From: a virus | Taxonomy: Duplodnaviria; Caudoviricetes | Virus record (IMG/VR): IMGVR_UViG_3300022602_000027 | Length of the DNA stretch: 64,000 nt | Reading direction: 5' to 3' (one strand) | Shown: positions 1 through 15,775 of the stretch, piece after piece | Layout: every line of letters begins with the position of its first letter | Numbering within the stretch: position 1 is the stretch's first letter | Position numbers and translations under genes: made by a program | The notes under the pieces: model-generated | Told to the model about the DNA's origin: nothing | Databases searched by the model: none | Seen by the model: the letters and a program-made list of their open reading frames with translations, nothing else

Positions 1-149
1 TAGTGCAAGCAGAAGCAGACGGACTTACAGATACAGTAACGGACATAGATGTAATGACCCTGGACGCTTAAGGGTTATTACAACAGGGGTTGACAAGGCT
101 CCTGTTTTCAGTTATAATACATACTTAAATTAATTAAACAGGAGCGACA

Positions 150-833: not shown

Positions 834-1057
834 AGACTAACGAAGTGATACAGTGGGTAGGAACGACATTCATCTTAATGATGTATGCCATAATGAACTT
901 CTTTCCTGAGTTCTATCCCTGGAACATTGTTACAGGCCTAGCAGGGGGCATCTGCTTCTTTGCTTGGGCGTGGCGTGTGGCTAATAGACAACAAATGATA
1001 ATCAACGGTGTGGCAATAGCCCTATGCTGTCTAGGGTTATATAAGGTGTGGGGTTGA
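830..1057 (+). CDS. Small membrane protein (about 3 TM)
   Basis: Hydrophobic 75 aa; GTGA overlap with upstream stop. Confidence 0.7.
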   Translation: MKTNEVIQWVGTTFILMMYAIMNFFPEFYPWNIVTGLAGGICFFAWAWRVANRQQMIINGVAIALCCLGLYKVWG

Positions 1058-1114
1058 CAAGAGCAAGGGTTGGCACTATAATAGAGTTATTGTTAAACAA
1101 AAGGAGCGAAACTT

Positions 1115-1348
1115 ATGCGTACAATATCAACACTCAGGAATGGCAACATCTATCAGATGGACATCAAAGAAGCCATTGAGATCGTAGAAGCTTACAAACG
1201 GGCTAACGGCCATCCTGGTATGTTGGAAGCGGTAATGGAGATGGGTGACTTGGTTGCACTGGATGAACTACCCACTATCCAGAAGGTTGCTTATCGCAGG
1301 TTTATGAAGGATATGCAGGCTCTGTTCGCACCCAAAGAAGTGGCGTAA
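1115..1348 (+). CDS. Hypothetical early protein
   Basis: Promoter 1054, RBS 1103. Confidence 0.75.
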   Translation: MRTISTLRNGNIYQMDIKEAIEIVEAYKRANGHPGMLEAVMEMGDLVALDELPTIQKVAYRRFMKDMQALFAPKEVA

Positions 1349-1358
1349 ATGCAACGAT

Positions 1359-1381
1359 CAACCCTACACTCTGTAGGGTTG
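1359..1381 (+). repeat. Promoter-associated stem-loop CAACCCTAC-ACTCT-GTAGGGTTG (copy 1)
   Basis: Perfect 9-bp inverted repeat directly upstream of the -35 at 1383; related copies at 2298-2320 and 7317-7339. Confidence 0.85.
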
Positions 1382-1437
1382 GTTGACCAAAAGTAGGATC
1401 AGCAGTATAATAAACACTTAGCAACAAAGGAGCACAT

Positions 1438-1509
1438 ATGGAATGTACACATTGTCGCAAGTGGCGCTGGAATGGATTTAAGAGCTGTCCTACAGCACCA
1501 AAGTCCTAG
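1438..1509 (+). CDS. 23-aa Cys/Trp-rich micro-ORF (MECTHCRKWRWNGFKSCPTAPKS)
   Basis: Below ORF-track cutoff; own promoter (1383/1406) and AAGGAGC RBS at 1427. Confidence 0.5.
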   Translation: MECTHCRKWRWNGFKSCPTAPKS

Positions 1510-1576
1510 TAAAAAAAAAGGGTATTATAGCCCGGGGTTGACAAATGGTTAAACCGGTGCTATAATAAAGACATAG

Positions 1577-1773
1577 ACAGTTAGAAAAGCATTAAAGGTT
1601 ACCTACACCACTAGGCGCCTAGAGAGATGGAAGCGTACCGACGGGTACCTGGTATCTAGGGCATGAAGGCTTCGAGCAACGGTGGATAAGGCAGGCAGTA
1701 ATGACGAAGGCACTAGCACTATAGACGGTATAGAGCAAGTAGTCCGGAGTTCCTTTAGTTCTTCTCTAACTGT
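1577..1773 (+). ncRNA. Unknown structured ncRNA, copy A
   Basis: Starts just after promoter 1538/1561; 22-position terminal helix 1577-1598/1752-1773; internal GACG(G)-loop hairpins; homologous to 2361-2564 with compensatory changes; no RBS or ORF. Confidence 0.75.
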
Positions 1774-1776
1774 TAG

Positions 1777-1947
1777 AGTGAAGGGTACTGCCCAAAACTT
1801 GGTGAGGATTGCACGGTAATACCGTCGGTACATGGCTAACGGAGACGTTCTGTTAGTTACACCAGTCCAAAGGATGCCAAGAAGTGGAGCCCAGGGAGTA
1901 AGCAACCTGTGGGTTCCGGACAAAGGGAAGCTTCAGTACATTTCACT
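1777..1947 (+). ncRNA. Additional structured domain (copy A locus only)
   Basis: Closing helix AGTGAA..GTACTG/CAGTAC..TTCACT; hairpins ACGGT/ACCGT, TAACGGA/TCTGTTA, GGAGCCCA/TGGGTTCC. Confidence 0.5.
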
Positions 1948-1961
1948 GTAACAGTTACACA

Positions 1962-2013
1962 GGGTGTTGGCCTGAGGGCTGAACATTAAACGAGGTGCTC
2001 GCTCAGCCCGCCC
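1962..2013 (+). ncRNA. Conserved ~52-nt three-way-junction module, copy A
   Basis: GGGTG...CGCCC closing stem, TTAAAC linker; homologous to 2576-2627. Confidence 0.6.
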
Positions 2014-2085
2014 AATCTAATTTGTGGTTGACTTTTGAAACTTTTGGTGTTACAATAGTATTTTAAACAGTAAGGAGCGAAACTT

Positions 2086-2286
2086 ATGTATGATATCGTA
2101 TCAAACCCAATCCCACGCAGTGGGTTCTATGCTACACCTTCAGACTTCAAAGAGCTGACTGCTGTCGTAGAGGCACTGAGCCCACAGGAAAAGGCCTTGG
2201 TCTATCCCTACATGATGATGGCGTTGAACACTTGCAACAAGGCAGTAGAAGACAAGATTTTGAACAGAGAGATATTTTGTAGTTAA
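2086..2286 (+). CDS. Hypothetical early protein
   Basis: Promoter 2028, RBS 2074. Confidence 0.75.
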   Translation: MYDIVSNPIPRSGFYATPSDFKELTAVVEALSPQEKALVYPYMMMALNTCNKAVEDKILNREIFCS

Positions 2287-2297
2287 AAAACAACAAT

Positions 2298-2320
2298 CAA
2301 CCCTACACTCCGTAGGGTTG
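2298..2320 (+). repeat. Promoter-associated stem-loop (copy 2)
   Basis: CAACCCTAC-ACTCC-GTAGGGTTG abutting the -35 at 2322. Confidence 0.85.
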
Positions 2321-2360
2321 GTTGACAAACAAGAAGAAAGAGACTATAATAGATACATAG

Positions 2361-2564
2361 ACAGTTAGAAAAGTGTTAAAGGTTACCTAGGCGTGCTAGG
2401 TAGTATAACCCAGCGGAAGTGACGTATCTCCGACGGGAGACCGCAGTTATACTACACGAAGGCTTCGAGCAACGGCACAGCACCTAGCAGTAATGACGAA
2501 AGCACAGAACGGGAAGACGGATCCCAAGTATGTAGACTGGAGTTCCTTTAGCGTTTTTCTAACT
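2361..2564 (+). ncRNA. Unknown structured ncRNA, copy B
   Basis: After promoter 2322/2345; uninterrupted 20-bp terminal helix (3 G-U) 2363-2382/2545-2564; TAGTATAAC/GTTATACTA and TCTCC-GACG-GGAGA stems. Confidence 0.75.
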
Positions 2565-2575
2565 AGCTGGTTACA

Positions 2576-2627
2576 GGGTGCTGGCCTAAGGGCCTAGCAT
2601 TAAACGAGGAGCTTGCTCTGCCCGCCC
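2576..2627 (+). ncRNA. Conserved three-way-junction module, copy B
   Basis: Homologous to 1962-2013 with stem substitutions. Confidence 0.6.
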
Positions 2628-2638
2628 AATCGATTTAT

Positions 2639-2701
2639 GCCCGGGAATCCACGCCAAGATCGCAACTTGGGGCAGTGAGCAGGTGAAACTCCTGCGAGGG
2701 C
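2639..2701 (+). ncRNA. Small structured element with GNRA-type loops
   Basis: GCCC/GGGC closing stem, CCAAG..GCAA..CTTGG and GCAGG-TGAAACT-CCTGC hairpins. Confidence 0.4.
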
Positions 2702-2771
2702 GCCAATGGTTGACATACTGTCGAAATGACAGTATAATATGTTTTTAACGTAAACAAAAGGAGCGAACTTT

Positions 2772-3257
2772 ATGGGTACAAGAAGCATGATCGGTATTGA
2801 GAATCCTAATACTGGCGTTGTCAAAAGCATCTATTGTCACTGGGATGGCTATCTACAGCACAATGGCTCAATCCTCAACAAACATTACAGCAACAGCCCT
2901 AAGGTCAATAACTTGATCGCACTGGGTGACTTGAGCTCATTGCGAGCAGAGATTGGTGAGAAGCACAGCTTCAGCCGTTTGGACACTGATCTAAGCGATG
3001 CAGAGTGGGACAAGCTCTACGGCGATATGTGTACATTTTACACACGCGACAGAGGCGAGACTGCACCTTACAAGCGTTTTGATAATGCTAAGGCCGCAGT
3101 GGACTACTACGATGGCAGCTGGTGCGAATACTTTTACTTGTTCAAGTACGATGAGGACTTGGAAACAGGCAAGTGGTACTTCCGTACACGCGAGTCAGGA
3201 CGTTGGAAGCGTTTGAGCACAGCATTGAAGCAGTTCAAAGAAGACGAAGTAGCATAA
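2772..3257 (+). CDS. Conserved phage hypothetical protein (MGTRS...IYCHWDGY type)
   Basis: Promoter 2710, RBS 2760; motif familiar from many phage early proteins. Confidence 0.8.
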   Translation: MGTRSMIGIENPNTGVVKSIYCHWDGYLQHNGSILNKHYSNSPKVNNLIALGDLSSLRAEIGEKHSFSRLDTDLSDAEWDKLYGDMCTFYTRDRGETAPYKRFDNAKAAVDYYDGSWCEYFYLFKYDEDLETGKWYFRTRESGRWKRLSTALKQFKEDEVA

Positions 3258-3320
3258 ACCAGAGGTGGCCCCGCTGTTAAGCGTACACATAGCAGGGGGC
3301 TACTAGACTAAGGAGCGAAC

Positions 3321-3587
3321 ATGACAGGCTTTCAAAGTAAACGAGCAATGGCTAACTCCAAAGGAGCAGGTATGAAAACAGTAAGAGTTGAAACACTATT
3401 AACACAAGAGATTGAAGTTCCTGATAACTGGGAGCGTGAGGATGTGCTAGACTTCCTAGCTGAATACCAATCATTCCGTGGAGCCTTCCAGGGTGTAAGC
3501 AATGAAGAGCAGACAGCCCGCATCGTTGACTTGGGCGTAATCGAAGAAACCATTAAAGAACTAGGAGAAGAAGCATATGACGACTAA
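3321..3587 (+). CDS. Hypothetical early protein
   Basis: RBS 3312; possible second start at 3372 behind AAGGAGC. Confidence 0.7.
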   Translation: MTGFQSKRAMANSKGAGMKTVRVETLLTQEIEVPDNWEREDVLDFLAEYQSFRGAFQGVSNEEQTARIVDLGVIEETIKELGEEAYDD

Positions 3588-3786
3588 ATTGAGTGATGTA
3601 GCCTACGATATTGAACAGCTATACATTGAAGGCTACAGGCCCGTAACCATTGCATCACAGCTGGAAATTCCATTGAGTATGGTTTATGATTGGCTAGAGT
3701 CTGTTAACGTAGAAGCAGACGGCGGATTTGTAGATGTAACCAATATGAGCGATGACGATATCAAGTACATGCTCAACAGCGATTAA
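3577..3786 (+). CDS. Small acidic protein, possible HTH
   Basis: GYRPVTIASQLEIPLSMVYDWL resembles a helix-turn-helix; GGAG RBS. Confidence 0.6.
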   Translation: MTTKLSDVAYDIEQLYIEGYRPVTIASQLEIPLSMVYDWLESVNVEADGGFVDVTNMSDDDIKYMLNSD

Positions 3787-3789
3787 AAC

Positions 3790-3835
3790 ACTAGTTCGCT
3801 CCTAGTAACCCGTGGGGGGACGGGCAAATCCCCCC
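3790..3835 (+). ncRNA. Anti-RBS hairpin followed by possible H-type pseudoknot
   Basis: ACTAG-TTCGCTC-CTAGT (3790-3806); CCCGT-GGGGGG-ACGGG-CAAAT-CCCCCC (3809-3835). Confidence 0.55.
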
Positions 3836-3942
3836 AATCCTTTCTAGATATCCTTATGGATTGTAGGGTTATCTAGAAAGCGGTTGACAGCAGAGCGGTT
3901 TGAGCTTATAATTGAGTTATAGTTAAACAAAAGGAGCGATAC

Positions 3943-4209
3943 ATGAACATTAGCACACTAGAACAGTATGTGGAGAACAAGAACAAGTGGCGAGCCGTAT
4001 TCAACCAAAAGCCTTTGAGCTTGTTGAACAAGCAGGATCGCCAGGCTATCGCTGATGGCATTGACAGCGAGATGAGCCCAGAGAACCTTACCTGCGATGG
4101 CGAACTGCCTCGCTCAGTAGTTCAACTCAAAATGCGTAATCTTACTCGTTGTGCTGAGGAACTGCTCAGCATTGATCCTTCAGTAACCTTTTACGAAATG
4201 GGAGTCTAA
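3943..4209 (+). CDS. Hypothetical early protein
   Basis: Promoter 3884, RBS 3933. Confidence 0.78.
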   Translation: MNISTLEQYVENKNKWRAVFNQKPLSLLNKQDRQAIADGIDSEMSPENLTCDGELPRSVVQLKMRNLTRCAEELLSIDPSVTFYEMGV

Positions 4210-4210
4210 C

Positions 4211-4411
4211 ATGACAATGCAGATTACCTATGCAGAACTAAAAGAGTTCATTGAGACCTTAACACCCGAACAGTTGGCCCTACCTGCCATGGTCTATGCA
4301 GGTGATGTCGATGACGCCATGACAGTGTTCGGAACCTCATTCAACTCTGACGAAGAGATGGGTGAGAGCATGCCGGATATCCCAGTTGAACAACCATTTC
4401 TTTTAATCTAA
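4211..4411 (+). CDS. Hypothetical acidic protein
   Basis: Tightly coupled ORF with GGAG upstream. Confidence 0.7.
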   Translation: MTMQITYAELKEFIETLTPEQLALPAMVYAGDVDDAMTVFGTSFNSDEEMGESMPDIPVEQPFLLI

Positions 4412-4420
4412 GGAGCGAAT

Positions 4421-5002
4421 ATGCCTAATTGGTGCAATAACACAGTTCAAATCAATCACGAAGACCCTGCCAAGATGTATGACTTGGTGCTGGCGATTAA
4501 CGAGGGTAAGTTCTGCAACTACGCCAAGCCCGTGCCTAAGGATCTGCATATCGTAGCGGGTCGGGTAGGTGATGATAACAATCCAGAGCAGATTGCGCTC
4601 GTAGAAGCGGAAGAACGCAACCTAGCCACATACGGTTACAAGACTTGGTATGACTTCGCAGTAAATGAATGGGGCACCAAGTGGGATGTTGATGCTTACG
4701 ATACAGTAGAGTATGACAGTGAGCACGACAAGAACGGCGTGACATTTGGATTTGATAGTGCTTGGAGTCCCCCAACTGGCGTTTACGAAGCCCTGTTAGA
4801 GCAAGGCTTCACTGTTAAGGCTTACTACTACGAGCCTGGCATGGCGTTCTGCGGTCAGTTCGACGAAGACGGTGACGAGTGCTTTGATATTGGCGGGTTG
4901 ACTAGTGAAACAGTCAAAGACGCTATCCCAGAGGCCTTGGACGAAATGTTTGGGATTAGTGAAACGATTGCTGAATATGAGGAAGAAGAAAATGAAGACT
5001 AA
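4421..5002 (+). CDS. DUF1281/YubB ferredoxin-like domain protein
   Basis: MPNWCNN start, WGTKWD, F.SAWSPP and YYEPGMAFCG motifs. Confidence 0.8.
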   Translation: MPNWCNNTVQINHEDPAKMYDLVLAINEGKFCNYAKPVPKDLHIVAGRVGDDNNPEQIALVEAEERNLATYGYKTWYDFAVNEWGTKWDVDAYDTVEYDSEHDKNGVTFGFDSAWSPPTGVYEALLEQGFTVKAYYYEPGMAFCGQFDEDGDECFDIGGLTSETVKDAIPEALDEMFGISETIAEYEEEENED

Positions 5003-5123
5003 TAGGGAAAAGAACTTGGCACACGATGCCAAAATGCAGGATAAGATACGCCCTAAGAAAGAATGGAATTGGGAACCGTTGGCTGAAGTGATTCGCCAAT
5101 GGAAGGCTGGTGCGAATGAGTAA
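4992..5123 (+). CDS. Small hypothetical protein
   Basis: Start re-assigned to ATG 4992, overlapping the upstream gene end. Confidence 0.5.
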   Translation: MKTNREKNLAHDAKMQDKIRPKKEWNWEPLAEVIRQWKAGANE

Positions 5124-5397
5124 ACTGAATTTCTTTAGTCGGCCCTGGGTTGCCTTTGATGCGGCCAACAAGGAGCATCGTAGGATTTACAATCAGTTCA
5201 AAAGGACAATGAGTTGGGGACACAATCCCTACAGATTTATCCTGCCCAAAGACCCTGGTTTTGATTTGGTTTCGATGATTGAAAAGTCAGTACTTTCGTA
5301 CTACATGGACAAAGAGTTTGGGCTACCTTTGCCCGTAGAAACTGATCGAAAAGATGTCCAAAATGTGCAGAATTTGGTTGACAAGCAGGCAGATTGA
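5116..5397 (+). CDS. Hypothetical protein
   Basis: Overlapping start; C-terminus (LVDKQAD) is encoded by the next promoter. Confidence 0.65.
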   Translation: MSKLNFFSRPWVAFDAANKEHRRIYNQFKRTMSWGHNPYRFILPKDPGFDLVSMIEKSVLSYYMDKEFGLPLPVETDRKDVQNVQNLVDKQAD

Positions 5398-5465
5398 GTA
5401 TACAATAGACTTATGCGTTAGAGATAATGCATACATTTTTTAACAACACACACAGAGGTAACAAC

Positions 5466-5822
5466 ATGGCTACAGATAAGACTTTTAATGTTTTTGGAGT
5501 TTCTAAATTGAACGGTGAGTACAAGGTGCGCTTTGCCAATGACGTGATGCGTATTAAGGTCCTGGCTAAACACGGTCACGAGGATATTACGCTCGTTGAC
5601 TTGGAGAAGTCAGTGACTAAGTATGAGGGTATTAAGGCTATTGCCTCTATGCCTGAGTTTGCCAATGCATCAGCACAGGCGGCTATCACTGAGTACTTGG
5701 AGGAAAAGGCTCCTAAGGCTACAGCAAAACCTGCACCTAAGGCCAAGGCTACAGCGCCTAAGGCTAAGGCAGTTACACCTGCTAAGGTTGCAGTAACAGA
5801 GGACGAAGACGCTCCTTTCTAA
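5466..5822 (+). CDS. Hypothetical protein with Ala/Lys/Pro-rich tail
   Basis: Promoter 5378; AGAGGT RBS before ATG 5466; PKATAKPAPKAK repeats suggest nucleic-acid binding. Confidence 0.75.
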   Translation: MATDKTFNVFGVSKLNGEYKVRFANDVMRIKVLAKHGHEDITLVDLEKSVTKYEGIKAIASMPEFANASAQAAITEYLEEKAPKATAKPAPKAKATAPKAKAVTPAKVAVTEDEDAPF

Positions 5823-5826
5823 GCCT

Positions 5827-6009
5827 ATGTTCCTACAGTACGAAGTATGGGCTATCACCGACCAGCATGAAGAGCTGGTCGAGTGTGTACCTACCCTAAA
5901 GGAAGCAGAAGAGATAGCAGAGAACGAACGTGAATTTTGCGATGAGGTTTACATCGTAGAAGACGCAGATGGGGACTTGAAAGAGATTAGACGATTCCAG
6001 GGCCTATAG
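5827..6009 (+). CDS. Small acidic hypothetical protein
   Basis: 60 aa ORF whose TAG stop lies inside the tRNA 5' end. Confidence 0.6.
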   Translation: MFLQYEVWAITDQHEELVECVPTLKEAEEIAENEREFCDEVYIVEDADGDLKEIRRFQGL

Positions 6010-6076
6010 CTCAGTTGGTTAGAGCAGAGGACTCATAATCCTTTGGTCCCTGGTTCGAGTCCAGGTGGGCCCACCA
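6000..6076 (+). tRNA. tRNA-Ile2 (CAT anticodon, lysidine type; Met less likely)
   Basis: Acceptor GGGCCTA/TGGGCCC + ACCA, D arm GCTC/GAGC, anticodon arm GAGGA-CTCATAA-TCCTT, GGTTCGAGTCC T arm; pattern resembles enterobacterial ileX. Confidence 0.9.
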
Positions 6077-6080
6077 ATTA

Positions 6081-6110
6081 GAAGAGTGTTGTTTTCGCGC
6101 AACACTCTTC
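6081..6110 (+). terminator. Hairpin after tRNA
   Basis: 11-bp stem GAAGAGTGTTG/CAACACTCTTC. Confidence 0.6.
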
Positions 6111-6200
6111 TCTCACGAATAACCCTACAAAAAATAAGTTATTGACACTGGGTCCAAAATGCTGTATAATACATACTTACAAAGCAAAAAGGAGCGCACA

Positions 6201-6473
6201 ATGTTAACAGCAAAGCAAAGCATCTACGCACAAGTAGCAAAAGCAAAGTTAATTTTTAATAAAAAACTTAAGACATACAAATTAGTTTGTGCTTTTAATG
6301 TTTACGAGACAAAAAAGCAGTTTAACAATGTAGTTTATAAATTTCCTGTACAAGCAAAATGCGACTATGTTAGCGGGGACTTACTTGCTACTAATTTAGC
6401 GCAAGACTTAACTGTTGCGCTTAATAGTGCTAAAAAAGTTATGCGTACAGACAACATTGTAATAGTAGAGTAA
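6201..6473 (+). CDS. Basic hypothetical protein (TC/CC-depleted)
   Basis: Promoter 6142, RBS 6191; start re-assigned to 6201. Confidence 0.72.
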   Translation: MLTAKQSIYAQVAKAKLIFNKKLKTYKLVCAFNVYETKKQFNNVVYKFPVQAKCDYVSGDLLATNLAQDLTVALNSAKKVMRTDNIVIVE

Positions 6474-6551
6474 TTTAGTAAACTAATACATAGCGCACTT
6501 GACATTTTGGAAAACGTGTGTTATACTACACGTACACTAAAAGGAGCATGT

Positions 6552-6752
6552 ATGCAAAAGCGTTTTGTAGTTGTAGCACAGGAATTGTACGTAAATGAAG
6601 CTGGAGAAAATACTAGCTATAACGGACATACGGCAATGAACTATTACATAGAGGACACTAAGACAGGCGAGGTGCGCTTGCTAGACGAGTGTATACTGTG
6701 TGACATGGAAGTGTTTACTAAACGCGATTTTAACGCATTGGAGGTAGTATAA
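6552..6752 (+). CDS. Hypothetical protein (TC/CC-free, no Pro)
   Basis: Promoter 6499, RBS 6543; start re-assigned to 6552. Confidence 0.72.
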   Translation: MQKRFVVVAQELYVNEAGENTSYNGHTAMNYYIEDTKTGEVRLLDECILCDMEVFTKRDFNALEVV

Positions 6753-6753
6753 T

Positions 6754-6945
6754 ATGACAAGCAATTACGCAAAAGCGTTTGAACTACGCAAAGCAATTAA
6801 ACTACTAAACGAAGCAGACGCTATTGTACAAGCGGCACTAGGGGCTAGCGACAACTGCTACGAAGTGCATTGTGCGCTAGAGGACTTAGAAAGTACACTA
6901 GAGGACTATGCGGACAATTTGATTGAAATGCAAATAACTGAATAA
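6754..6945 (+). CDS. Helical hypothetical protein (TC/CC-free, no Pro)
   Basis: GGAGG RBS; coupled to upstream stop. Confidence 0.72.
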   Translation: MTSNYAKAFELRKAIKLLNEADAIVQAALGASDNCYEVHCALEDLESTLEDYADNLIEMQITE

Positions 6946-6954
6946 GGAGCGAAC

Positions 6955-7302
6955 ATGCAGACAACAGGCAACAAACTAACAATTAAAAACATTACACAAG
7001 AAGACGACAGCTTAACTACGCACTACACATGCAATGAGCGAGTGGTGCTGGCTGGAGACAGTATTTGGGACTGTACACTAACAGAAGTTACAGTTACGGA
7101 CATTGTGGTACATGCTTATGAAGACTACAAAATGGTTAACGTATACTACGACGTTGACGGCGTAGAGGGTACTGAAGTTGAAGACAGCTGGCGCATGTAC
7201 ACAGACAGTGGCATGGAGGAAGCTATTAGCGTATTGTTGGGAGACAGCATTAGCTTTACAGAGCAGGGAATGCAAGAGGACGGCATAGCTAGCATGGAGT
7301 AG
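6955..7302 (+). CDS. Acidic hypothetical protein (TC/CC-free, no Pro)
   Basis: RBS 6946. Confidence 0.78.
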   Translation: MQTTGNKLTIKNITQEDDSLTTHYTCNERVVLAGDSIWDCTLTEVTVTDIVVHAYEDYKMVNVYYDVDGVEGTEVEDSWRMYTDSGMEEAISVLLGDSISFTEQGMQEDGIASME

Positions 7303-7316
7303 CATAAAAACAACAA

Positions 7317-7339
7317 TATCCCTACACTCTGTAGGGGTA
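7317..7339 (+). repeat. Promoter-associated stem-loop (copy 3)
   Basis: TATCCCTAC-ACTCT-GTAGGGGTA upstream of the -35 at 7351. Confidence 0.8.
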
Positions 7340-7410
7340 TTATACAGGGGTTGACAAATGGGCCCAATCCCTGTATAATACGAAGTATAGTAACTAACAA
7401 GGAGCGAACC

Positions 7411-7743
7411 GTGGGATACTTTACAGATTGTGATTTTGATTCAACCCTGGACATGATTGATTGTGTTAATGAGGTTGTGGAGCGTCATGTACGCAAGATG
7501 GAACGATGCACACCAAACGAACTGGGCTTGGACATGCGCTGTGGCCCTGTCTACATCGACCGCGATGAAGAAGTGATTGCTGTAAGCCACTCTAGTGCCA
7601 TTGACTACTATGGCGGCTTTGAGTATATCAAAGAGGATGAGGGTCGGAAGACTTGTGGGGATTATACATTCTTTACAACCGAGTCCAGCCGTGTACAAGA
7701 CTGCTTTGATCATTTGAACGAAGTTGACAACGAGGAAGAATAA
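7411..7743 (+). CDS. Acidic hypothetical protein
   Basis: Promoter 7351, RBS 7401, GTG start at 7411. Confidence 0.75.
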   Translation: MGYFTDCDFDSTLDMIDCVNEVVERHVRKMERCTPNELGLDMRCGPVYIDRDEEVIAVSHSSAIDYYGGFEYIKEDEGRKTCGDYTFFTTESSRVQDCFDHLNEVDNEEE

Positions 7744-8237
7744 TGAAGCGAGCCTTAGTCCTAGCCTTGTTCCTAGCCAACGGTGCCTGGGCTAAGGCTC
7801 CTGTAACCATCACCGGCCCTCAGATTATGGTAGGCGCCAAGTTACCTAACCAGACCAAGAAGGATGAGGATTGCCTAGCCTATTCTATCTTCCGTGAAGC
7901 CGGCAACCTAAACGAAGCAGGGCAGTATGCCGTGGCGCAGGTACACATCAACCGCGCCCGTGAAGGTAGCTGGGGCCCGCACCTATGCCAAGTGGTGCAT
8001 GCCAAGGCTCAGTTCAGCTGGACCAAAGAACGATATGTGGCTTGGACTAAGGATCAAGCCAAGCGGTATCATGCCATCGCCCACGCGGTGATATCAGGTG
8101 TTGTAGGTGTGCCACAGATTGCATCAACCGAGATCCTGCACTATCACGCCAACTATGTGCATCCAAAGTGGGCGGATTACGGGCAAAAGGTTGCGGTTGC
8201 AGGGCCACACATCTTCTACAAGGATGTGCCCTATTAA
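7743..8237 (+). CDS. SleB-like cell wall hydrolase (Hydrolase_2)
   Basis: Signal peptide; CLAYSIFREA..., AVAQVHINR, QFSW, LHYHANYVHPKWA and HIFY motifs. Confidence 0.85.
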   Translation: MKRALVLALFLANGAWAKAPVTITGPQIMVGAKLPNQTKKDEDCLAYSIFREAGNLNEAGQYAVAQVHINRAREGSWGPHLCQVVHAKAQFSWTKERYVAWTKDQAKRYHAIAHAVISGVVGVPQIASTEILHYHANYVHPKWADYGQKVAVAGPHIFYKDVPY

Positions 8238-8301
8238 CCCTATTGGTTGACGGGTTATCGGTTTGGTGCTATAATTAAAACATATTAACAAGGAGCGAAC
8301 G

Positions 8302-8532
8302 ATGTTACATTTTGCCAAAGAACACTACGTAGAAGTTTTATGTATGCTGGGCGGGTTTGCTTGGGGCTGGATATTCCACTCTATCCTCAACGGCATCTTT
8401 GCTCCTATTATGCGCCTGTTCCAAACAGCCAAGGTCAAGGTAGAACGGGTGCCAGTTCCTGTTCGCGTAGAGCCTACCCTGGAGCAGGACAGCAAGTTGG
8501 TTGACATGTTCAAGCGCCGCAAAGCTGGTTGA
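8302..8532 (+). CDS. Small membrane protein
   Basis: Promoter 8247, RBS 8292, N-terminal TM segment. Confidence 0.7.
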   Translation: MLHFAKEHYVEVLCMLGGFAWGWIFHSILNGIFAPIMRLFQTAKVKVERVPVPVRVEPTLEQDSKLVDMFKRRKAG

Positions 8533-8587
8533 CATCCTGCCCAAAAGGCTGTATAATATACATATACTGAAAACTTAGGAGCGAACT

Positions 8588-8833
8588 ATGTTACAAGAAG
8601 ATCAATACTGCCGTATAGTATTTGAAGGCAAAGAATACGACTCACGCCACGGTGGCCCATTCGATCGTGGCTCAGCAGACTCGTGGTACGGTCGAGGCAA
8701 GGACCCGCATTTCTATCAGGAAGGTACAGGTACTAGCCAGCGAGTTGAGCGCCTTAATGCCCAAGAGTTGGAAGCCTATTATGCGGGCTATGCCTACAAT
8801 GAGATGCATGGCGGTAAAAAGAGCTGGGATTAA
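8588..8833 (+). CDS. Conserved phage hypothetical protein (RHGGPFDRGSADSWY)
   Basis: Promoter 8529, RBS 8578. Confidence 0.78.
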   Translation: MLQEDQYCRIVFEGKEYDSRHGGPFDRGSADSWYGRGKDPHFYQEGTGTSQRVERLNAQELEAYYAGYAYNEMHGGKKSWD

Positions 8834-8896
8834 ATGGTTGACAAAAGGCCCAAAAGGCCGTATAATAGAGTTATAGTTAATTAATAGGAGCGAACT

Positions 8897-9091
8897 ATGA
8901 AATTCAACAGAACTAAGCAGGTCAAAGAAGCAGCCAAATTCCTCAGCGAAATGATCGGTGTAGACATCAAGGACTTTGACGCAGAGTACATCGAAACCTT
9001 GGCCATGGACTGCCAGTGCAACTATGAAGGCATCTGCGAAATCCTAGGCTTAGAATTGCCTGAAAGCCTTAGGCCTGTAATGGTTGACTAA
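8897..9091 (+). CDS. Hypothetical protein
   Basis: Promoter 8838, RBS 8887; ends VMVD in the next -35. Confidence 0.75.
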   Translation: MKFNRTKQVKEAAKFLSEMIGVDIKDFDAEYIETLAMDCQCNYEGICEILGLELPESLRPVMVD

Positions 9092-9145
9092 CCAGCCAAA
9101 AGGCCGTATAATACTTGTATTAGTTAATTAATTGGAGCGAACCAA

Positions 9146-9502
9146 ATGAAATTACACATCACTACCCAGTACATGGAAAACTACGGTGCCCACGATTGGG
9201 ACGGAGAAGGTGCTTGCCCCCAGCGTTGGAAGTTTAAGGGCGGTGAGGACTACTTCTATCAACTAGGTGCAGAAACACCCTCCGATGAGCACCTTGCTGA
9301 GTTGGTTCAAGCACTCCGCCCACGCTTTGAATACTCCGATGACTATGCCAGCAACACCTTAGTTGGCTACGGTGTGGTGGCAGACGACTACAGGACCGAG
9401 TTTGAGCAGAGCCAGTTGGACTATGAGGGAAGCATTGCTCACCCTGCTGTGATGTTGCAACCCTTGCCCGATGTTGTTGATTCTTACTACTATGGAGCTT
9501 GA
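9146..9502 (+). CDS. Conserved phage hypothetical protein (TQYMENYGAHDWDG)
   Basis: Promoter 9084, RBS 9134. Confidence 0.78.
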   Translation: MKLHITTQYMENYGAHDWDGEGACPQRWKFKGGEDYFYQLGAETPSDEHLAELVQALRPRFEYSDDYASNTLVGYGVVADDYRTEFEQSQLDYEGSIAHPAVMLQPLPDVVDSYYYGA

Positions 9503-9503
9503 T

Positions 9504-9686
9504 ATGAGAAGTAAACTTAACCAATTCTGCGATGTGATTGTAACCATTACCGGATTCTTGCTCATCTACGGTGTAGTAGGCGCCCTAGATGAAAGCCCTG
9601 ACGAAAACCTAGTGACTTTGTTTGCTATGGGACTCTGTGGCTTAATTCTTACATTTGCCGGTATTAATGGCTTGACAAGACGTTGA
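9504..9686 (+). CDS. Two-TM small membrane protein
   Basis: Start re-assigned to ATG 9504 after GGAG; two hydrophobic segments. Confidence 0.65.
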   Translation: MRSKLNQFCDVIVTITGFLLIYGVVGALDESPDENLVTLFAMGLCGLILTFAGINGLTRR

Positions 9687-9729
9687 ATTGAGACTATAAT
9701 AAGACTTTAAACACACACAGGAGCGAACT

Positions 9730-10017
9730 ATGTCAGTCAAACAAATCAATACCTTAATCTTCCAAACAGACTTAACCAACGATGAGCTCTCCAGCATCAT
9801 CGACGCTGTCAAGTTCAAGCGAAGCCAATTGGCACAGCGAGTCAAGTTTTCAATCCGCAAGGGCGATAACGTAGAATTCACATCCAGCAAGACAGGGCGC
9901 ATCACCCGCGGTTTTGTGGAAAAGGTTGCTATCAAATATGTCACAGTCAACACCGGAATGGGCTTGTGGCGTGTGCCGGCCAATATGCTCACAGTGGTTG
10001 ACAAAGAAGCAGTTTGA
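9730..10017 (+). CDS. Hypothetical protein, possible SH3/KOW-like C-terminus
   Basis: Promoter 9672, RBS 9720; GDNVEF..GFVEKVAIKYVTV..WRVPANML. Confidence 0.72.
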   Translation: MSVKQINTLIFQTDLTNDELSSIIDAVKFKRSQLAQRVKFSIRKGDNVEFTSSKTGRITRGFVEKVAIKYVTVNTGMGLWRVPANMLTVVDKEAV

Positions 10018-10412
10018 GCTTATAATAGTATTTTAAACAGTTAACAAAGGAGCGACACTATGTTAAAAGAATTAGATACTAAAGAAGCAGGCATCTTTGC
10101 ATTCGCGGCGGCTATGGATGCTCAGCGCCGTAATTCAAACAATAAGAGCCTTTACTCCCAAGAGCAGGTTCGCAGGGCAGTTACAGCAAGAGACTTGATT
10201 GATACAGCCTTTGCCTACACTAAACTCTACATCAACTATCGCAAGACATTCATTGCCGTTAAGGCAGAAGGTGCTCGCCGTAAAGATAGCATGGCACGAG
10301 AAGTCCTAGCCCTGTTTGAAAGCAATGGGTATGGTGTTGTATCTACGCCACAAGGGCTTATTGTTCGAATTGACAAAGAAGCAGTTTGAGACTATAATAG
10401 TATTTTAAACAG
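9998..10412 (+). repeat. 43-bp direct repeat (9998-10040 / 10370-10412) flanking one gene
   Basis: TTGACAAAGAAGCAGTTTGAG(CT/AC)TATAATAGTATTTTAAACAG; 41/43 identical. Confidence 0.9.
10060..10389 (+). CDS. Hypothetical protein
   Basis: Promoter 9998, RBS 10049. Confidence 0.75.
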   Translation: MLKELDTKEAGIFAFAAAMDAQRRNSNNKSLYSQEQVRRAVTARDLIDTAFAYTKLYINYRKTFIAVKAEGARRKDSMAREVLALFESNGYGVVSTPQGLIVRIDKEAV

Positions 10413-10429
10413 CAAATAGGAGCGACACT

Positions 10430-10774
10430 ATGCAAGGTTTTTCAAAAGAGCAGATCATTTCTACAGTACAAGGCGCAACAGAGCAGGCTGTTGAAGCGGC
10501 CAAGGCCATGTACGCTAGAGTAGGCGAGCGTGACGCATGTGGGTTTGGATGGGTTGACATCTACGTAGAGCGCACCAACTCTAAAGAAGCCAAGGCGCTG
10601 ATCGAAGCAGGATTTCGTAAGAGCTACAAACCAAAATGCCTTACACTTTGGGATCCAGCTGGTTTGCCTACACAGAGCATTTCAGTTAAGGAAGCAGGCG
10701 CACGGGCGTTCGCTGATTACTTCCGTAACATGTTCCCAGAGGCTAAGATCTACGCATCCAGCAGAATGGACTAA
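10430..10774 (+). CDS. Conserved phage hypothetical protein (ACGFGWV...QSISVKEAGA)
   Basis: Promoter 10370, RBS 10419. Confidence 0.78.
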   Translation: MQGFSKEQIISTVQGATEQAVEAAKAMYARVGERDACGFGWVDIYVERTNSKEAKALIEAGFRKSYKPKCLTLWDPAGLPTQSISVKEAGARAFADYFRNMFPEAKIYASSRMD

Positions 10775-10782
10775 GTCAAAAG

Positions 10783-10802
10783 ACTAGGGGGCAACCCCTA
10801 GT
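10783..10802 (+). terminator. GCAA-tetraloop hairpin
   Basis: ACTAGGGG-GCAA-CCCCTAGT; weak U tract. Confidence 0.5.
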
Positions 10803-10838
10803 TGTGTTATAATTACATTTTAACAATAAGGAGCGCGA

Positions 10839-11729
10839 ATGACTAAGGTTGTAACCAGTGCAATGCTAATGAATGCACAAGCAGAAGTAACCAGTTTAGA
10901 AACTGACAAAGACTACCTAAAGGCTAAGGCTGTAGCATTGGCCGCAGAGTCAGATGAAGACATTATGAAACGTTTGGGCGAGCGTTTTGAGATCTTAGAA
11001 GACATGACTCGTGCTGTCAAAGCAGGCGATGTTAGAGCTATGATTGTAACAGGACCCCCAGGTGTAGGTAAGAGCTACGGTGTGGAGCGAGTACTGTCAA
11101 AGCATGATGTGTTCGCTGATATTGCCGACGACAAGAAGCTGAAGAAGTACGAAGTAGTCAAAGGTGCTATGAGTGCTATCGGCTTGTATAAGAAGCTGTA
11201 TGAGTATTCGGACAAGAAGTCTATCCTAGTGTTCGATGACTGTGACTCAGTACTGTTAGATGACTTGAGCTTGAACATTCTAAAGGCTGCCTTAGACTCG
11301 GGTAAGAAGCGTATGATCCATTGGAATACAGATGCTCGTAGCCTTAAGGATAACGGTGTGCCCAACTCATTCGAGTTCAAAGGCGGTGCTATCTTTATCT
11401 CAAACATCAAGTTCGATCACGTTAAGAGCAAGAAGCTTCGCGATCACTTAGAAGCACTAGAGTCACGTTGCCACTACTTGGACTTGACTATTGATACTGT
11501 ACGTGAGAAGCTACTACGTATCAAGCAGGTAGTTACTGAGCACGGCATGTTGGACTCATACGACCTAGCGGATAACGAGAAGCTAGAAGTAGTAGAGTTT
11601 ATCAATGCCAATGCGGAACGTATGCGTGAGCTCAGCTTGCGTATGGTGCTTAAGGTAGCAGACATCCGTAAGAGCATGCCAGCTAAGTGGCAGAGCGTAG
11701 TAGAAGTTACATGTATGCGCGGCCGCTAG
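10839..11729 (+). CDS. AAA+ family P-loop ATPase
   Basis: Walker A GPPGVGKS, Walker B ILVFDDCD, LESRC arginine-finger-like motif. Confidence 0.85.
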   Translation: MTKVVTSAMLMNAQAEVTSLETDKDYLKAKAVALAAESDEDIMKRLGERFEILEDMTRAVKAGDVRAMIVTGPPGVGKSYGVERVLSKHDVFADIADDKKLKKYEVVKGAMSAIGLYKKLYEYSDKKSILVFDDCDSVLLDDLSLNILKAALDSGKKRMIHWNTDARSLKDNGVPNSFEFKGGAIFISNIKFDHVKSKKLRDHLEALESRCHYLDLTIDTVREKLLRIKQVVTEHGMLDSYDLADNEKLEVVEFINANAERMRELSLRMVLKVADIRKSMPAKWQSVVEVTCMRGR

Positions 11730-11788
11730 GGCTAGCGTACTGTAGGGCTAGGGCACGACATTAACTATTATAATATGCCCTAGCAGGA

Positions 11789-11886
11789 GAACAACTGACG
11801 TGATTCGCTCCCACTAGGTTGTTCGGTAGTTTGATCCTAGGAACCGTAAATCCGATTCGCTCCCGGTTGTTCCTAGGATTTTTTTT
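11789..11886 (+). ncRNA. Candidate antisense sRNA with two AUUCGCUCC loops complementary to the early RBS
   Basis: Hairpin 1 (11789-11824) and hairpin 2 (11834-11879, 11-bp basal stem) each expose ATTCGCTCC; T-tract 11879-11886; TATAAT at 11769. Confidence 0.75.
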
Positions 11887-12109
11887 GGTTGAGAGGCGGT
11901 GAGAAATCTTTTCTCGAGAGGTGGGGCCGGGGCATAGTCAACAACACAACACACAATACAGCAACAGCGCATGGGTACCGAGGTCAAATCACCACCTCAA
12001 AAGTTTAAGTACTTCTTTTATATTTTTTGCGCGGCAATTTTTTTCAACCCACAGGACCCATTTCGGGCAAAGTCCCGCTAAATATATTACTAACTTATAG
12101 GAGCGCATT

Positions 12110-12289
12110 ATGGCAGCTAAACCATATCTACACACTACAGAAATCGATTTCTTGAAAAACATCTACAAAACCATTGTAGTTGATCCTACAGCTACAGGCA
12201 CTATTGTTCGCCGTGTTGCGCATGGTATTAATGTTGACGGAATCGAAGGACCAAACGGTTTATTCACTGTAGTCAAAGTCGGACGTTAA
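12110..12289 (+). CDS. 59-aa hypothetical protein
   Basis: Below track cutoff; CTAAATA late-type element upstream, GGAGCG RBS at 12100, terminator downstream. Confidence 0.65.
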   Translation: MAAKPYLHTTEIDFLKNIYKTIVVDPTATGTIVRRVAHGINVDGIEGPNGLFTVVKVGR

Positions 12290-12307
12290 TTTAATCGTAG
12301 CCCACTC

Positions 12308-12330
12308 AAAAGGACTCTAGCAGTCCTTTT
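12308..12330. terminator. Intrinsic terminator, possibly bidirectional
   Basis: AAAAGGACT-CTAGC-AGTCCTTTT. Confidence 0.7.
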
Positions 12331-12348
12331 CTTACGATAACTATTACT

Positions 12349-12465
12349 ATGATATATGATAACTTATTTTGGTTTGTGCTTACATGTGTGCTTACACCCA
12401 TATCCAGCTTAGTGTGCTGTTGGCTTGGTGTTATACTACAGGATTTTCTCGGGCTAGAACGCTAA
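12349..12465 (+). CDS. Possible 38-aa single-TM peptide
   Basis: MIYDNLFWFVLTCVLTPISSLVCCWLGVILQDFLGLER; no clear RBS. Confidence 0.3.
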   Translation: MIYDNLFWFVLTCVLTPISSLVCCWLGVILQDFLGLER

Positions 12466-12533
12466 GTACTCCGCAAAATTTTTTTGCGCTCTAAAAATTT
12501 GACTACTGTAGACCCATTCAGCTATAATAGTGT

Positions 12534-12746
12534 ATGGATACTTCTTTACTCATTACCAAGCTGTTAGCCGCTATATTATCACTGCTAGACTCTGCCAACT
12601 TGCGTAATCGTGTATATGAACAGTCAGCTCGTATAGAGTCTTTAGAGCTAGCCATAGAGGACATAGAGCGTATTAGTGCTTCAACCGCATCAGAGTCAGA
12701 GCGATTAGACTTAATTAAAGGTATTTGTAGTCGTATTACTCAGTAA
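12534..12746 (+). CDS. Coiled-coil hypothetical protein
   Basis: Hydrophobic N-terminus followed by heptad-like helix. Confidence 0.5.
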   Translation: MDTSLLITKLLAAILSLLDSANLRNRVYEQSARIESLELAIEDIERISASTASESERLDLIKGICSRITQ

Positions 12747-13179
12747 CGGGCTTTGGTATACTAGTAGCGTATTCACCATTGGGAAACGGTTCGAAATCAC
12801 TGCCCGATTCAGGACTTGGATCTTTAGCTTGCGGGCTATTGCCATACTTAACGATCATATCCCATTCTGCATCAGATATCTTATATGCTTGTCTAATAGC
12901 TAGGCTAGTCAGCGGGAATTGTTCAGCTACTTTGAGCAATTCAGCACAGCGTTGACTATATGTTAGTGACGCAGGATCTTGATACATCATTTGTCCAGGA
13001 TTGCGTATAGTCCTGACAACCATAGCCAGCACATCACCGGGAATCATCAGCAGGCCTGCTAGACGTTGCACGAGGCCGGGTGGTTTTCCTTGGCTAGCCG
13101 CATCCTTCTTGAACGCTTGCCATATGTTGGCATAGTCCTTAAGGGTGGGGTTTTCTGTGATGAATTCTTTTGCTCGCAT
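12736..13179 (-). CDS. Putative internal head protein
   Basis: MRAKEFITE N-terminus resembles the T4 capsid-targeting sequence; CTAAATA late promoter upstream. Confidence 0.6.
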   Translation of the reverse strand: MRAKEFITENPTLKDYANIWQAFKKDAASQGKPPGLVQRLAGLLMIPGDVLAMVVRTIRNPGQMMYQDPASLTYSQRCAELLKVAEQFPLTSLAIRQAYKISDAEWDMIVKYGNSPQAKDPSPESGSDFEPFPNGEYATSIPKPVTE

Positions 13180-14334: not shown

Positions 14335-14411
14335 TGTAATTCCCGTTTAATTCATTTATTTATTATAATATACTGGGTGAATTAAGATAAATACTCTAAA
14401 CGGGATATCTT

Positions 14412-14786
14412 ATGAACGCAGAACAATATCGTGCTCTAGTGCGCAAACTAGAAGCTATTAATGAAGATCCAGCGGGAACACCCCCTGCACCACCGGGACA
14501 ACAAATGGATCCATCAATGCCATTTTACCCATCAATGCCTGCGGCTCAACCAGCGGCGCCTATTAGTCCAGATAAAGTATGGGCACAGTTAAAATTTGAA
14601 GATAAAGCTATGATTATGAAGATTCTTCAAGAGCCTAATAATCAACTGCCTAACAGTCCTGCGGCCAATGCTCTAATTGCACAGGCTAATACAATGGGAT
14701 ATCCTGCTAGTTCAGCAACACACATGTCAGCAGGCGCTGGATCAGTTCGTGGTAGAGGAAATCAAGGACAAGGAGGTCCAGTATGA
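14412..14786 (+). CDS. Pro/Ala-rich putative internal head protein
   Basis: MNAEQYRALVRKLEAINE leader shared with the next gene. Confidence 0.65.
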   Translation: MNAEQYRALVRKLEAINEDPAGTPPAPPGQQMDPSMPFYPSMPAAQPAAPISPDKVWAQLKFEDKAMIMKILQEPNNQLPNSPAANALIAQANTMGYPASSATHMSAGAGSVRGRGNQGQGGPV

Positions 14787-15775
14787 ACGCAGAACAATAT
14801 CGTACCCTAGTCCGTAAACTAGAAGCTATTAATGAAGCCCCTGAAGACGATCAAGCGGCTGCCGCGGCAGCTAGTGATGCAGGTAACTTACCTCCTCCTA
14901 CAGCACAACCAGCACAACAGGGTGCTACTAATATAGATGCTTACAAGCCTACAGATGGACTTAAAGATGTTCCAGGTAACTCAAAGTCACAGGCTATTCA
15001 AAATGCCATTAAGATGGGACTAAAGCCAGGTGCTAAGTTCCGTTGGTGCATGAAGTATAAAGTACAAGGTGGTACTAAACAACATACAGATCCTAAAAAA
15101 GATACTCTTCCTTATACACGCACTCCACAATCACAATACGATGTTCCAAATACACCGTCAGGCAGACTTCAAGCTGGCTTAGGTAATTTAATTGAGACTC
15201 AACTATCCGAGGCATTGACTAAACTACGCCATCGTCTAAATGAAGCAGAAGGATTAGCCTATGGTCAACCAGATCCAGATAATCCTGGATTCATGTGGGT
15301 TCCAGCAGATGGTACTAGCCCATTTGGTACTGAAGGTAATCCAAAGCCAATGGTACATACTGGTACTGGAGGGTATGTAAATGCCAAGATGGTTCCTGTT
15401 TCTCAACCAGTACCTAGACCCATTGTTGCTCCAGCAGATGAACCTGCACCAGCTCCATTGTCACCGGCTGACACAGGTGATACTGGATCCAGTACAGTAG
15501 CGCATGTTGATGCTAACACACCTACTACTTGTACTATTGAAGATCAAGCACGTATCAAGTATATGCCTACATTTAATCAGGCTTATGCGGCGGCTAAGAA
15601 AGCAGGCTGTCCAGAGTTCATATGGTGCCAAGTACTTAAGGTACCTAGTCAACAACATGCAGACCCTATAGGTCCAGATAACTCGGGTGCTAATGATATA
15701 GACAGTATAGTAAACGGTAATCCAGGACGTACTGATCCTGCGGCTACTACTGCTTACTTTAACAGTAGAAAATAA
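14783..15775 (+). CDS. Putative internal head/virion protein with two F-x-WC repeats
   Basis: Same leader; internal LIE/LSE/LNE possible prohead-protease sites. Confidence 0.7.
   Translation: MNAEQYRTLVRKLEAINEAPEDDQAAAAAASDAGNLPPPTAQPAQQGATNIDAYKPTDGLKDVPGNSKSQAIQNAIKMGLKPGAKFRWCMKYKVQGGTKQHTDPKKDTLPYTRTPQSQYDVPNTPSGRLQAGLGNLIETQLSEALTKLRHRLNEAEGLAYGQPDPDNPGFMWVPADGTSPFGTEGNPKPMVHTGTGGYVNAKMVPVSQPVPRPIVAPADEPAPAPLSPADTGDTGSSTVAHVDANTPTTCTIEDQARIKYMPTFNQAYAAAKKAGCPEFIWCQVLKVPSQQHADPIGPDNSGANDIDSIVNGNPGRTDPAATTAYFNSRK

Follow-up and report, generated by a model that had tools for sequence, protein, structure and literature searches.

A conserved hairpin element of uncultured jumbo phages carries loops complementary to the ribosome-binding sites of early genes

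The early gene block and its ribosome-binding sites

The DNA analysed here, a stretch of 64,000 nucleotides referred to below as the window (IMG/VR record IMGVR_UViG_3300022602_000027), comes from an uncultured freshwater jumbo phage, and the DNA datasets that match it are lake and other freshwater metagenomes. The first 12 kb of the window form a block of small + strand genes, among which about 20 host-type promoters are distributed (Table 1). These promoters share A-rich leaders ending in (A)AGGAGCGAAC, and the repetition of a host-type promoter and leader between small early genes meets the criterion for early promoter cassettes of the PeSL type. Several of the promoters have a small inverted repeat in the spacer, and many early ORFs terminate within the next promoter. 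Toward the end of the block lies the gene of an NrdC.10-like AAA ATPase, and the hairpin element described in this work follows it.

Nineteen early starts are preceded by a ribosome-binding site (RBS) with a common extended motif, hereafter the tag. Its core GGAGCG occurs 27 times on the + strand of the window and 5 times on the - strand, and two of these five are the hairpin loops described below. Most of the tagged RBSs stand behind perfect TTGACA-17-TATAAT promoters, and the tags lie 20-35 bp downstream of the early promoters. The tagged leaders are unstructured (mean dG -2.2). In total, about 60% of the early ORFs are tagged.

Some further features of the window were recorded. A tRNA scan of the window returned only a tRNA-Met (6000-6076). 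Three direct-repeat pairs with 76-91% identity (1347-1421/2286-2360, 1560-1605/2344-2389 and 1959-2022/2573-2636) show that a region of about 900 nt, which lacks convincing ORFs, has been duplicated. The adjacent + strand genes at 14412-14786 and 14783-15775 are 93% identical over their first 56 nt (14411-14466 and 14782-14837), pointing to tandem paralogy or to a recent duplication of the 5' end.

Table 1. Features of the early region and of the hairpin element (positions in the window)
Feature	Position	Strand	Description
Early promoters (about 20)	90-10412	+	sigma-70 host-type consensus, within 11 kb; 13 are perfect TTGACA-17-TATAAT
Tagged early RBSs (19 motifs)	141-12107	+	GGAGCG(A/C)(A), 3-8 nt before starts; sites begin at 141, 1103, 2074, 2760, 3312, 3933, 4412, 6191, 6946, 7401, 8292, 8578, 8887, 9134, 9720, 10049, 10419, 10830 and 12100
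Third anti-tag site	3792-3836	+	small hairpin ACUAG-UUCGCUC-CUAGU (3792-3808), then G6/C6 hairpin (3813-3836)
NrdC.10-like AAA ATPase gene (phrog_1250)	10839-11729	+	directly upstream of the element; anchors it in relatives
Variable spacer hairpin	11747-11784	+	9-bp stem GCUAGGGCA/UGCCCUAGC, 20-nt loop; between ATPase stop and hairpin 1
Hairpin 1	11789-11825	+	7-bp outer stem GAACAAC 11789-11795 / GTTGTTC 11819-11825; internal loop; 3-bp inner stem GUG 11800-11802 / CAC 11812-11814; 9-nt loop AUUCGCUCC 11803-11811
Hairpin 2 (intrinsic terminator)	11834-11886	+	11-bp outer stem 11834-11844 / 11869-11879; 5' bulge GUAAAU; inner stem CCG 11852-11854 / CGG 11864-11866; loop AUUCGCUCC 11855-11863; U-tract 11880-11886
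G-rich/TATA-like motif, window copy	11918-11940	+	degenerate: GAGAGGTGGGGCCGGGGCATAG
Non-coding block	11955-12075	+	about 110 nt, about 70 nt after the U-tract; conserved in at least 15 relatives; contains AGCGCA, TGGGTACCGAGGT, AAATCACCACC, AGTACTTCTTTATAATTTTTT, CGCGG, CAGGACCCATT and CTATATAC; no Rfam match

Structure of the hairpin element

The element is co-directional with all early genes and consists of two hairpins. In both, a G-C pair closes the loop AUUCGCUCC atop a 3-bp inner stem, followed by an internal loop and a longer outer stem, and both loops are unpaired in the MFE and centroid structures (ViennaRNA). Hairpin 2 meets the criteria for an intrinsic terminator, namely a stable G+C-containing hairpin followed by a U-tract on the transcribed strand; the scan revealed no other strong + strand terminator between 3836 and 11886. 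A long U-tail of this kind is common among sRNAs that bind Hfq. The folding energy of the + strand element is unexceptional (z = -0.8), and therefore the case cannot rest on thermodynamics; the - strand of the same region has a z of -2.7.

The 9-mer ATTCGCTCC is present in three copies in 64 kb, against 0.25 expected, and none of 100 shuffles reached three. Two of the copies are the hairpin loops, and the third is an RBS (- strand, 4412-4420). On the whole + strand of the window, the word TCGCTCC has three copies only, two of them in the loops and one in a third hairpin at 3796, and all three sit at the 3' ends of early units. The first early unit ends at the third site, whose local fold is less certain; the 17 nt of its small hairpin repeat the leader at 8881-8897 in inverted orientation. 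The same arrangement is present in three relatives (L122, L136 and L143).

The loop AUUCGCUCC complements GGAGCGAA(U), which precedes the 19 early starts. When duplexes were predicted between the loop and the 28 nt around each start, 19 of the 33 early + strand ORFs paired with the loop at -11 to -15.5 kcal/mol, and for the same tagged sites the predicted duplexes with the 16S anti-Shine-Dalgarno (anti-SD) sequence reached -6.5 to -10 kcal/mol.

The variable spacer hairpin between the ATPase stop codon and hairpin 1 includes a TATAAT (11769-11774) that has no -35 box and is absent from the promoter-scan list, and relatives show unrelated hairpins or none at this position. Because the spacer is not conserved in relatives and the TATAAT lacks a -35 box, a dedicated promoter is unsupported; neither the promoter scan of the window nor the comparison of the spacer across relatives yielded a conserved promoter for the element. 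The criterion for an independent sRNA gene (an own promoter and a discrete small transcript) is not met. A separate sRNA gene is improbable because no conserved promoter was found, and an origin in the 3'UTR is the likelier assignment.

Most claims about the locus made in a preliminary description, which was drawn up from sequence alone, could be confirmed. It had reported two hairpins with unrelated stems and an identical 9-nt loop on the inner stems of Table 1, which held in both sequence and fold; an 11-bp stem followed by a U8 terminator, which held when the T7 run is counted together with T11879; and a loop that is the reverse complement of a tag, with GGAGCG before 19 early starts, which also held. 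The claim that late genes use GGAGA and would escape largely held: the sites of genes past 12.5 kb are mostly GGAGA, AGGA or the like, behind TAAATA-type motifs, yet 4 of about 60 later ORFs reach -11 kcal/mol with the loop. The claim that the whole early block and all early RBSs would be hit held in part, about 40% of the early ORFs being without a tag. On the other hand, what was proposed as a separate sRNA is better regarded as a 3'-UTR/terminator element of early transcripts, tied to the 3' end of the ATPase gene.

Two observations concern the DNA downstream of the element. For the conserved non-coding block (Table 1), a role as an origin, as a further ncRNA or as a promoter region for middle or late genes is conceivable. 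In addition, most relatives have a G-rich motif and then a TATA-like word (GAGGGGGTCGGGGCATATA) at 40-70 nt past the U-tail.

Conservation of the element in uncultured jumbo phages

No near DNA match to the locus or the element was found in cultured phages (INPHARED). The nearest protein kin are the jumbo phages PA5oct, Atu_ph07 and Phosso, with 30-49% identity (30-40% for structural proteins). The corresponding locus of PA5oct has neither tag nor hairpins, and the four published ncRNAs of this phage map elsewhere in its genome (PMC7318152). Relatives in IMG/VR are found on contigs of up to 383 kb. Among 185,579 bacterial and archaeal genomes, the element was matched once, on a 9.5-kb contig of an Ignavibacteria MAG (L346, VGVV01000021.1), which is probably a mis-binned phage contig and offers no host clue without checking. 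A comparison of positions 11650-12150 with all 4227 families of Rfam 15 gave no match at the gathering score or at E<=10, and no description of the element or of the GGAGCGAA tag was found in the open literature searched.

An exact-pattern scan of IMG/VR for two loop copies 30-60 nt apart gave at least 120 matches, of which about 50 are expected by chance (a rough estimate) and many are coding repeats. The architecture of the window (hairpin, optional middle hairpin, hairpin, T-run) is shared by 48 matches, representing 37 distinct sequences, whose stems are unrelated to each other yet complementary and whose loops are fixed. A pair of TTCGCTCC words 40 nt apart in one relative (G003) was considered as a second element and rejected; the pair is the complement of two + strand GGAGCGAAUC sites, one of them directly before an ATG.

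Further loci were collected via the ATPase protein. In more than 100 distinct IMG/VR jumbo-phage contigs, the NrdC.10-like ATPase gene is immediately followed by the element, with 1-4 hairpins. Of the relatives whose ATPase is at least 69% identical, nearly all have it directly 3' of the ATPase stop codon. In many relatives hairpin 1 overlaps this stop codon (...CGC GGT TGA), and the GA of TGA opens the loop region. CCG-AUUCGCUCC-CGG and the U-tract are kept in relatives, the latter after the last hairpin and on the + strand in nearly all members. Some relatives have further early cassettes downstream of the element.

A whole-element alignment (MAFFT/RNAalifold) misaligned the outer stems and was replaced by a loop-anchored inner-stem alignment and constrained folds. 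In this alignment of 95 hairpins the loop is fixed, and each of the inner pairs, three in number, varies among CG, UA and GC. The inner stem is paired in 95.7% of cells compared to 80.2% in shuffles, with 39 double-change cells compared to 4.6, and none of 500 shuffles reached either observed value; further out, the following four positions are mainly unpaired and constitute the internal loop. At ATPase-oriented loci, TCGCTCC has 205 distinct contexts on the + strand, and in 94% of them at least 5 pairs enclose the word; the mean dG is -14.3 kcal/mol compared to -7.6 kcal/mol with shuffled flanks. The element is real and conserved, and as an RNA family it is undescribed.

Covariation of loop and tag

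Loop and tag were tallied in 150 distinct contexts. The site tag GGAGCGA occurs with the loop TCGCTCC (class A) in 70 contexts, and the tag GAGGGC with the loop GCCCTC (class B) in 23. The tag GGAGCAA is combined with the loop TTGCTCC in one context (L191) and with the loop TCGCTCC in two, and in one context the tag GGAGCGA is present without a loop at the ATPase locus; the remaining contexts have too few called starts or neither feature. No contig among the 150 contexts mixes classes A and B.

Class B comprises about 30 distinct contigs (L189, L260, L269-L303 and L319) with 1-4 hairpins after the ATPase gene, the first of which often overlaps the stop codon. Their loops are NGCCCUC, mostly UGCCCUC, and an unbiased count of 7-mers upstream of starts identified GAGGGCA as their commonest site. 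In L191, whose ATPase is 63% identical, three hairpins have GAUUGCUCC loops and the commonest site is GGAGCAAAU; GGAGCAA is found at 18 of 33 called starts, and its 24 + strand copies compare with 3 complement copies, all of which are loops (UUGCUCC). The class-B and L191 motifs fall in hairpin loops in unconstrained folds. In two other lineages (L304-L342 and L192-L198), the sites are of the ordinary GGAGA type and the ATPase gene is not followed by hairpins. A pattern search for more L191-type elements was unsuccessful, as 18 of 19 matches were coding repeats, and L191 remains a singleton.

In the ATPase tree, class B forms one clade (SH-aLRT 98) that contains one loss lineage, and class A is paraphyletic around it. 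The independent events are consequently few, about two coordinated switches and two to three joint losses, and must not be read as 150 independent observations. The switch from A to B alters 4 of 7 positions on both loop and tag. The predicted energies of the matched duplexes are -13.9 kcal/mol (A loop/A tag) and -14.2 kcal/mol (B loop/B tag), whereas those of the crossed duplexes are -5.4 kcal/mol (A loop/B tag) and -6.1 kcal/mol (B loop/A tag), so that the model predicts the A and B pairs to be orthogonal. The L191 switch is not orthogonal, the class-A loop pairing with the L191 tag at -13.1 kcal/mol. In three relatives that are 94-100% complete (345-383 kb), clustering of the tag is confined to the block that immediately precedes the element. 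Loop and tag have thus co-evolved in the related phages; their physical pairing is inferred from this covariation, and there are no binding data.

There are two exceptions. In one contig (L185, IMGVR_UViG_3300027973_000032, 6798-6850), two perfect hairpins have 7-nt UCGCUCC loops and the early sites are mostly GGAGCA(A/C), unlike the loops; no loops matching these sites were found elsewhere in its 110-kb fragment. This is a minimal element, possibly of a system in transition or decay. In the other exception (L261/L262), position 6 of the tag is mixed G/A.

A finer pattern was seen among clade-B members. The base counts at the variable loop position (U 46, A 23, G 17, C 13) correspond roughly to those at the variable site position (A 125, U 24, G 8, C 3), and single genomes (L270, L290, L301 and others) bear differing loops (UGCCCUC, AGCCCUC, CGCCCUC). 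The sites are split in parallel, GAGGGCA being the most frequent and GAGGGCU the next, which may hint at sub-regulons.

Strand and transcript evidence

The overlap of hairpin 1 with the ATPase stop codon in many relatives means that a + strand RNA with anti-tag loops must exist. In addition to this overlap, the common direction, the U-tract and the absence of another strong terminator make it very likely, as an inference from sequence, that the + strand anti-tag RNA exists as the 3' end of early transcripts. Folding energies and G-U pairs of the + and - strands, compared across the family, do not single out a strand.

Four lake metatranscriptomes contain low-depth contigs over 10474-11868 and none at 11948-13000; one contig of 151 nt matches 11718-11868 without mismatch. 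These contigs are compatible with an end at the terminator, but the data are shallow and strandless, and carry-over of DNA is not excluded.

Comparison with known regulators

In architecture, the closest known RNAs are the cuckoo sRNAs of alphaproteobacteria (RSs0680a-d/CcsR and alpha-r14/NfeR1; PMC4615179), in which 2-4 adjacent hairpins share an anti-SD-like loop motif on variable stems; similarly, there are two hairpins here and 1-4 in relatives. On the other hand, the cuckoo loop is CCUCCUCCC, a generic anti-SD, whereas the phage loops (UUCGCUCC or UGCCCUC) complement the SD core and a private extension. Moreover, the cuckoo RNAs are encoded on the bacterial chromosome and the element by a phage, whose targets would be a whole temporal gene class with a co-evolving tag. 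Membership of the cuckoo family was rejected, the loops being AUUCGCUCC and not CCUCCUCCC and no Rfam model matching. In the UCCC-loop sRNAs of Firmicutes (RNAIII hairpins, RsaE/RoxS, LhrC), C-rich loops pair with the SDs of several mRNAs and block initiation (PMC2790875, PMC4132741), and the anti-SD of the icaR 3'UTR pairs with the SD region of its own mRNA, also blocking initiation (PMC3868564). Unlike the phage element, these RNAs have a generic G-rich SD target, no dedicated tag and no tag-loop co-evolution, and they share no sequence with it.

Among phage RNAs, c4 of P1 and P7 (immI) shares a transcription unit with its targets, and its loops pair with sites that include the RBS. Its specificity depends on how loop and target differ between P1 and P7. 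The role of c4 is the immunity of a temperate phage, exerted through a single operon (icd-ant), whereas about 20 separate early genes are tagged here in a lytic-type jumbo phage. The c4-like criterion of RBS-complementary loops with compensatory loop/target differences between relatives is met, which indicates a mechanistic likeness and not membership; homology to c4 was rejected, no Rfam match being found. In phage T4, post-transcriptional early shut-off via RBSs is based on the proteins RegA and RegB, of which RegB cuts GGAG in early SDs (PMC3014915); here, the discriminating agent would be an RNA and not a protein. Neither RegA (PF01818) nor RegB (PF10715) had a match in the three 94-100% complete relatives, which is weak evidence, as control genomes were also unmatched.

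Proposed mechanism and alternative explanations

The functional claims of the preliminary description fared unevenly. That anti-RBS loops pair with a shared early tag is supported at its core by the covariation of loop and tag in relatives, the pairing itself remaining inferred; the check it had set, that loop and RBS should co-vary in related jumbo phages, was passed. That an sRNA switches the early genes off is still an inference. The claim that no system like it had been described failed: cuckoo RNAs, UCCC-loop sRNAs, the icaR 3'UTR and the P1 c4 RNA work similarly. The novelty of the element lies in its being encoded by a phage, in a private tag that marks an entire temporal class, and in tag and loop having evolved together into orthogonal pairs.

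By a modest margin, we favor the reading in which the anti-tag hairpins that end early transcripts pair with the tagged early RBSs and repress their translation; pairing, repression, action in trans or in cis, and processing are all inferred. In this reading, the two hairpins of the element and the hairpin at the third site would be anti-tag modules at the 3' ends of early transcripts. A private extension of the Shine-Dalgarno core (GGAGCGAA) tags about 60% of the early genes, and the loops present its exact complement, UUCGCUCC. The loops would pair with the tagged sites over 8 bp at about -13 to -15 kcal/mol, more strongly than the 16S anti-SD does on the same sites, and the duplex would mask these sites from 30S subunits, resulting in less translation of early genes. 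Repression is inferred by analogy, from the position of the duplex and from the known systems discussed above. Transcripts of the early block would all end in the only strong terminator and each would carry the hairpins; because every transcript carries them at its end, stable 3' fragments should build up as early mRNAs are made and decay, and a delayed, self-timed shut-off may follow. The loops may act either in trans, after the stable 3' end has built up, or within the same polycistronic RNA. A point against this reading is the unfavorable stoichiometry of 2-3 loops to about 20 strongly transcribed targets.

Other explanations of the same observations were considered. The pairing may be real and its outcome not repression but nuclease protection, stabilization or circularization in cis, or another coupling of translation and decay. 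This explanation has the same support from complementarity and covariation, and the tagged genes lie upstream, co-directional and without a strong terminator in between, so that loops and targets can share one RNA. However, known loop-exposed anti-SD motifs mostly repress (cuckoo and UCCC sRNAs, icaR 3'UTR; PMC4615179, PMC2790875, PMC3868564), and an 8-bp duplex across the SD core is expected to block 30S binding; we regard a non-repressive outcome as unlikely. Alternatively, the - strand could be the active one, its loops GGGAGCGAAUC mimicking early RBSs and titrating a site-binding protein in the manner of CsrB/RsmZ. Such a mimic would co-vary with the tag exactly as a complement would, so that covariation cannot separate the two, and the - strand folds at least as well. 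Nevertheless, a decoy is very unlikely: there is no - strand promoter-like site to the right of the element, and a - strand terminator is lacking, since hairpin 1 is not preceded by an A-run; transcription of the - strand would continue antisense into the ATPase gene; the stop codon overlap requires a + strand RNA; nearly all members have their U-tract on the + strand; and, as a weak negative, no RegA-like protein was found in the three near-complete relatives. The criterion for a CsrB/RsmZ decoy, GGA motifs in the loops of the transcribed strand, is not met, the gene-sense strand showing CUCC.

A further possibility is that a phage repressor, or another protein that binds DNA, recognizes the motif as a double-stranded operator, which would be placed in opposite orientations at the leaders and at the element. 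A site that reads the same in both orientations would also yield the observed covariation, and the tags lie at a distance from the early promoters where a roadblock could act. However, an operator would leave unexplained why the inverted copies are always in hairpin loops with covarying stems, why these copies, 1-4 in tandem, always lie on the transcribed strand where early units end, and why the SD core is always in the tag at SD spacing from the start codon, and this explanation too is very unlikely. Finally, the hairpins could be ordinary terminators whose loop likeness is a functionless relic of inverted promoter-RBS cassettes. In favor of this, the early block is built of shuffled promoter-leader cassettes, and the small hairpin of the third site is an inverted copy of a leader. 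This explanation is all but excluded by loops that stay invariant while the stems diverge completely in more than 100 contigs, and by a loop and tag that were switched jointly at 4 of 7 positions in clade B and lost jointly twice.

Implications

If the anti-tag pairing is real, the element would be an RNA counterpart of T4 RegA/RegB in uncultured jumbo phages that form a large group, widespread in fresh and marine waters, and the early genes would be a rare case of a temporal gene class defined by a short RBS tag. The A and B tag/anti-tag pairs make this idea directly testable, and since the early promoters have the E. coli-type consensus, reporter tests do not require the unknown host in culture. 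Compact translational switches could be built from the orthogonal pairs. In addition, the element is a new structured RNA family outside Rfam, and the synteny anchor provided by the ATPase gene aids the annotation of phage metagenomes.

A bolder reading, which we consider a little less probable than its negation, is that these jumbo phages run a private translation address system: an extension of the Shine-Dalgarno sequence specific to each lineage would mark the early gene class, a multi-hairpin RNA ending the early transcripts would bear the corresponding anti-tag, early timing and shut-off would be achieved by RNA alone, and the code would drift between lineages into orthogonal pairs. If this were true, orthogonal tag/anti-tag pairs would insulate co-infecting relatives from each other.
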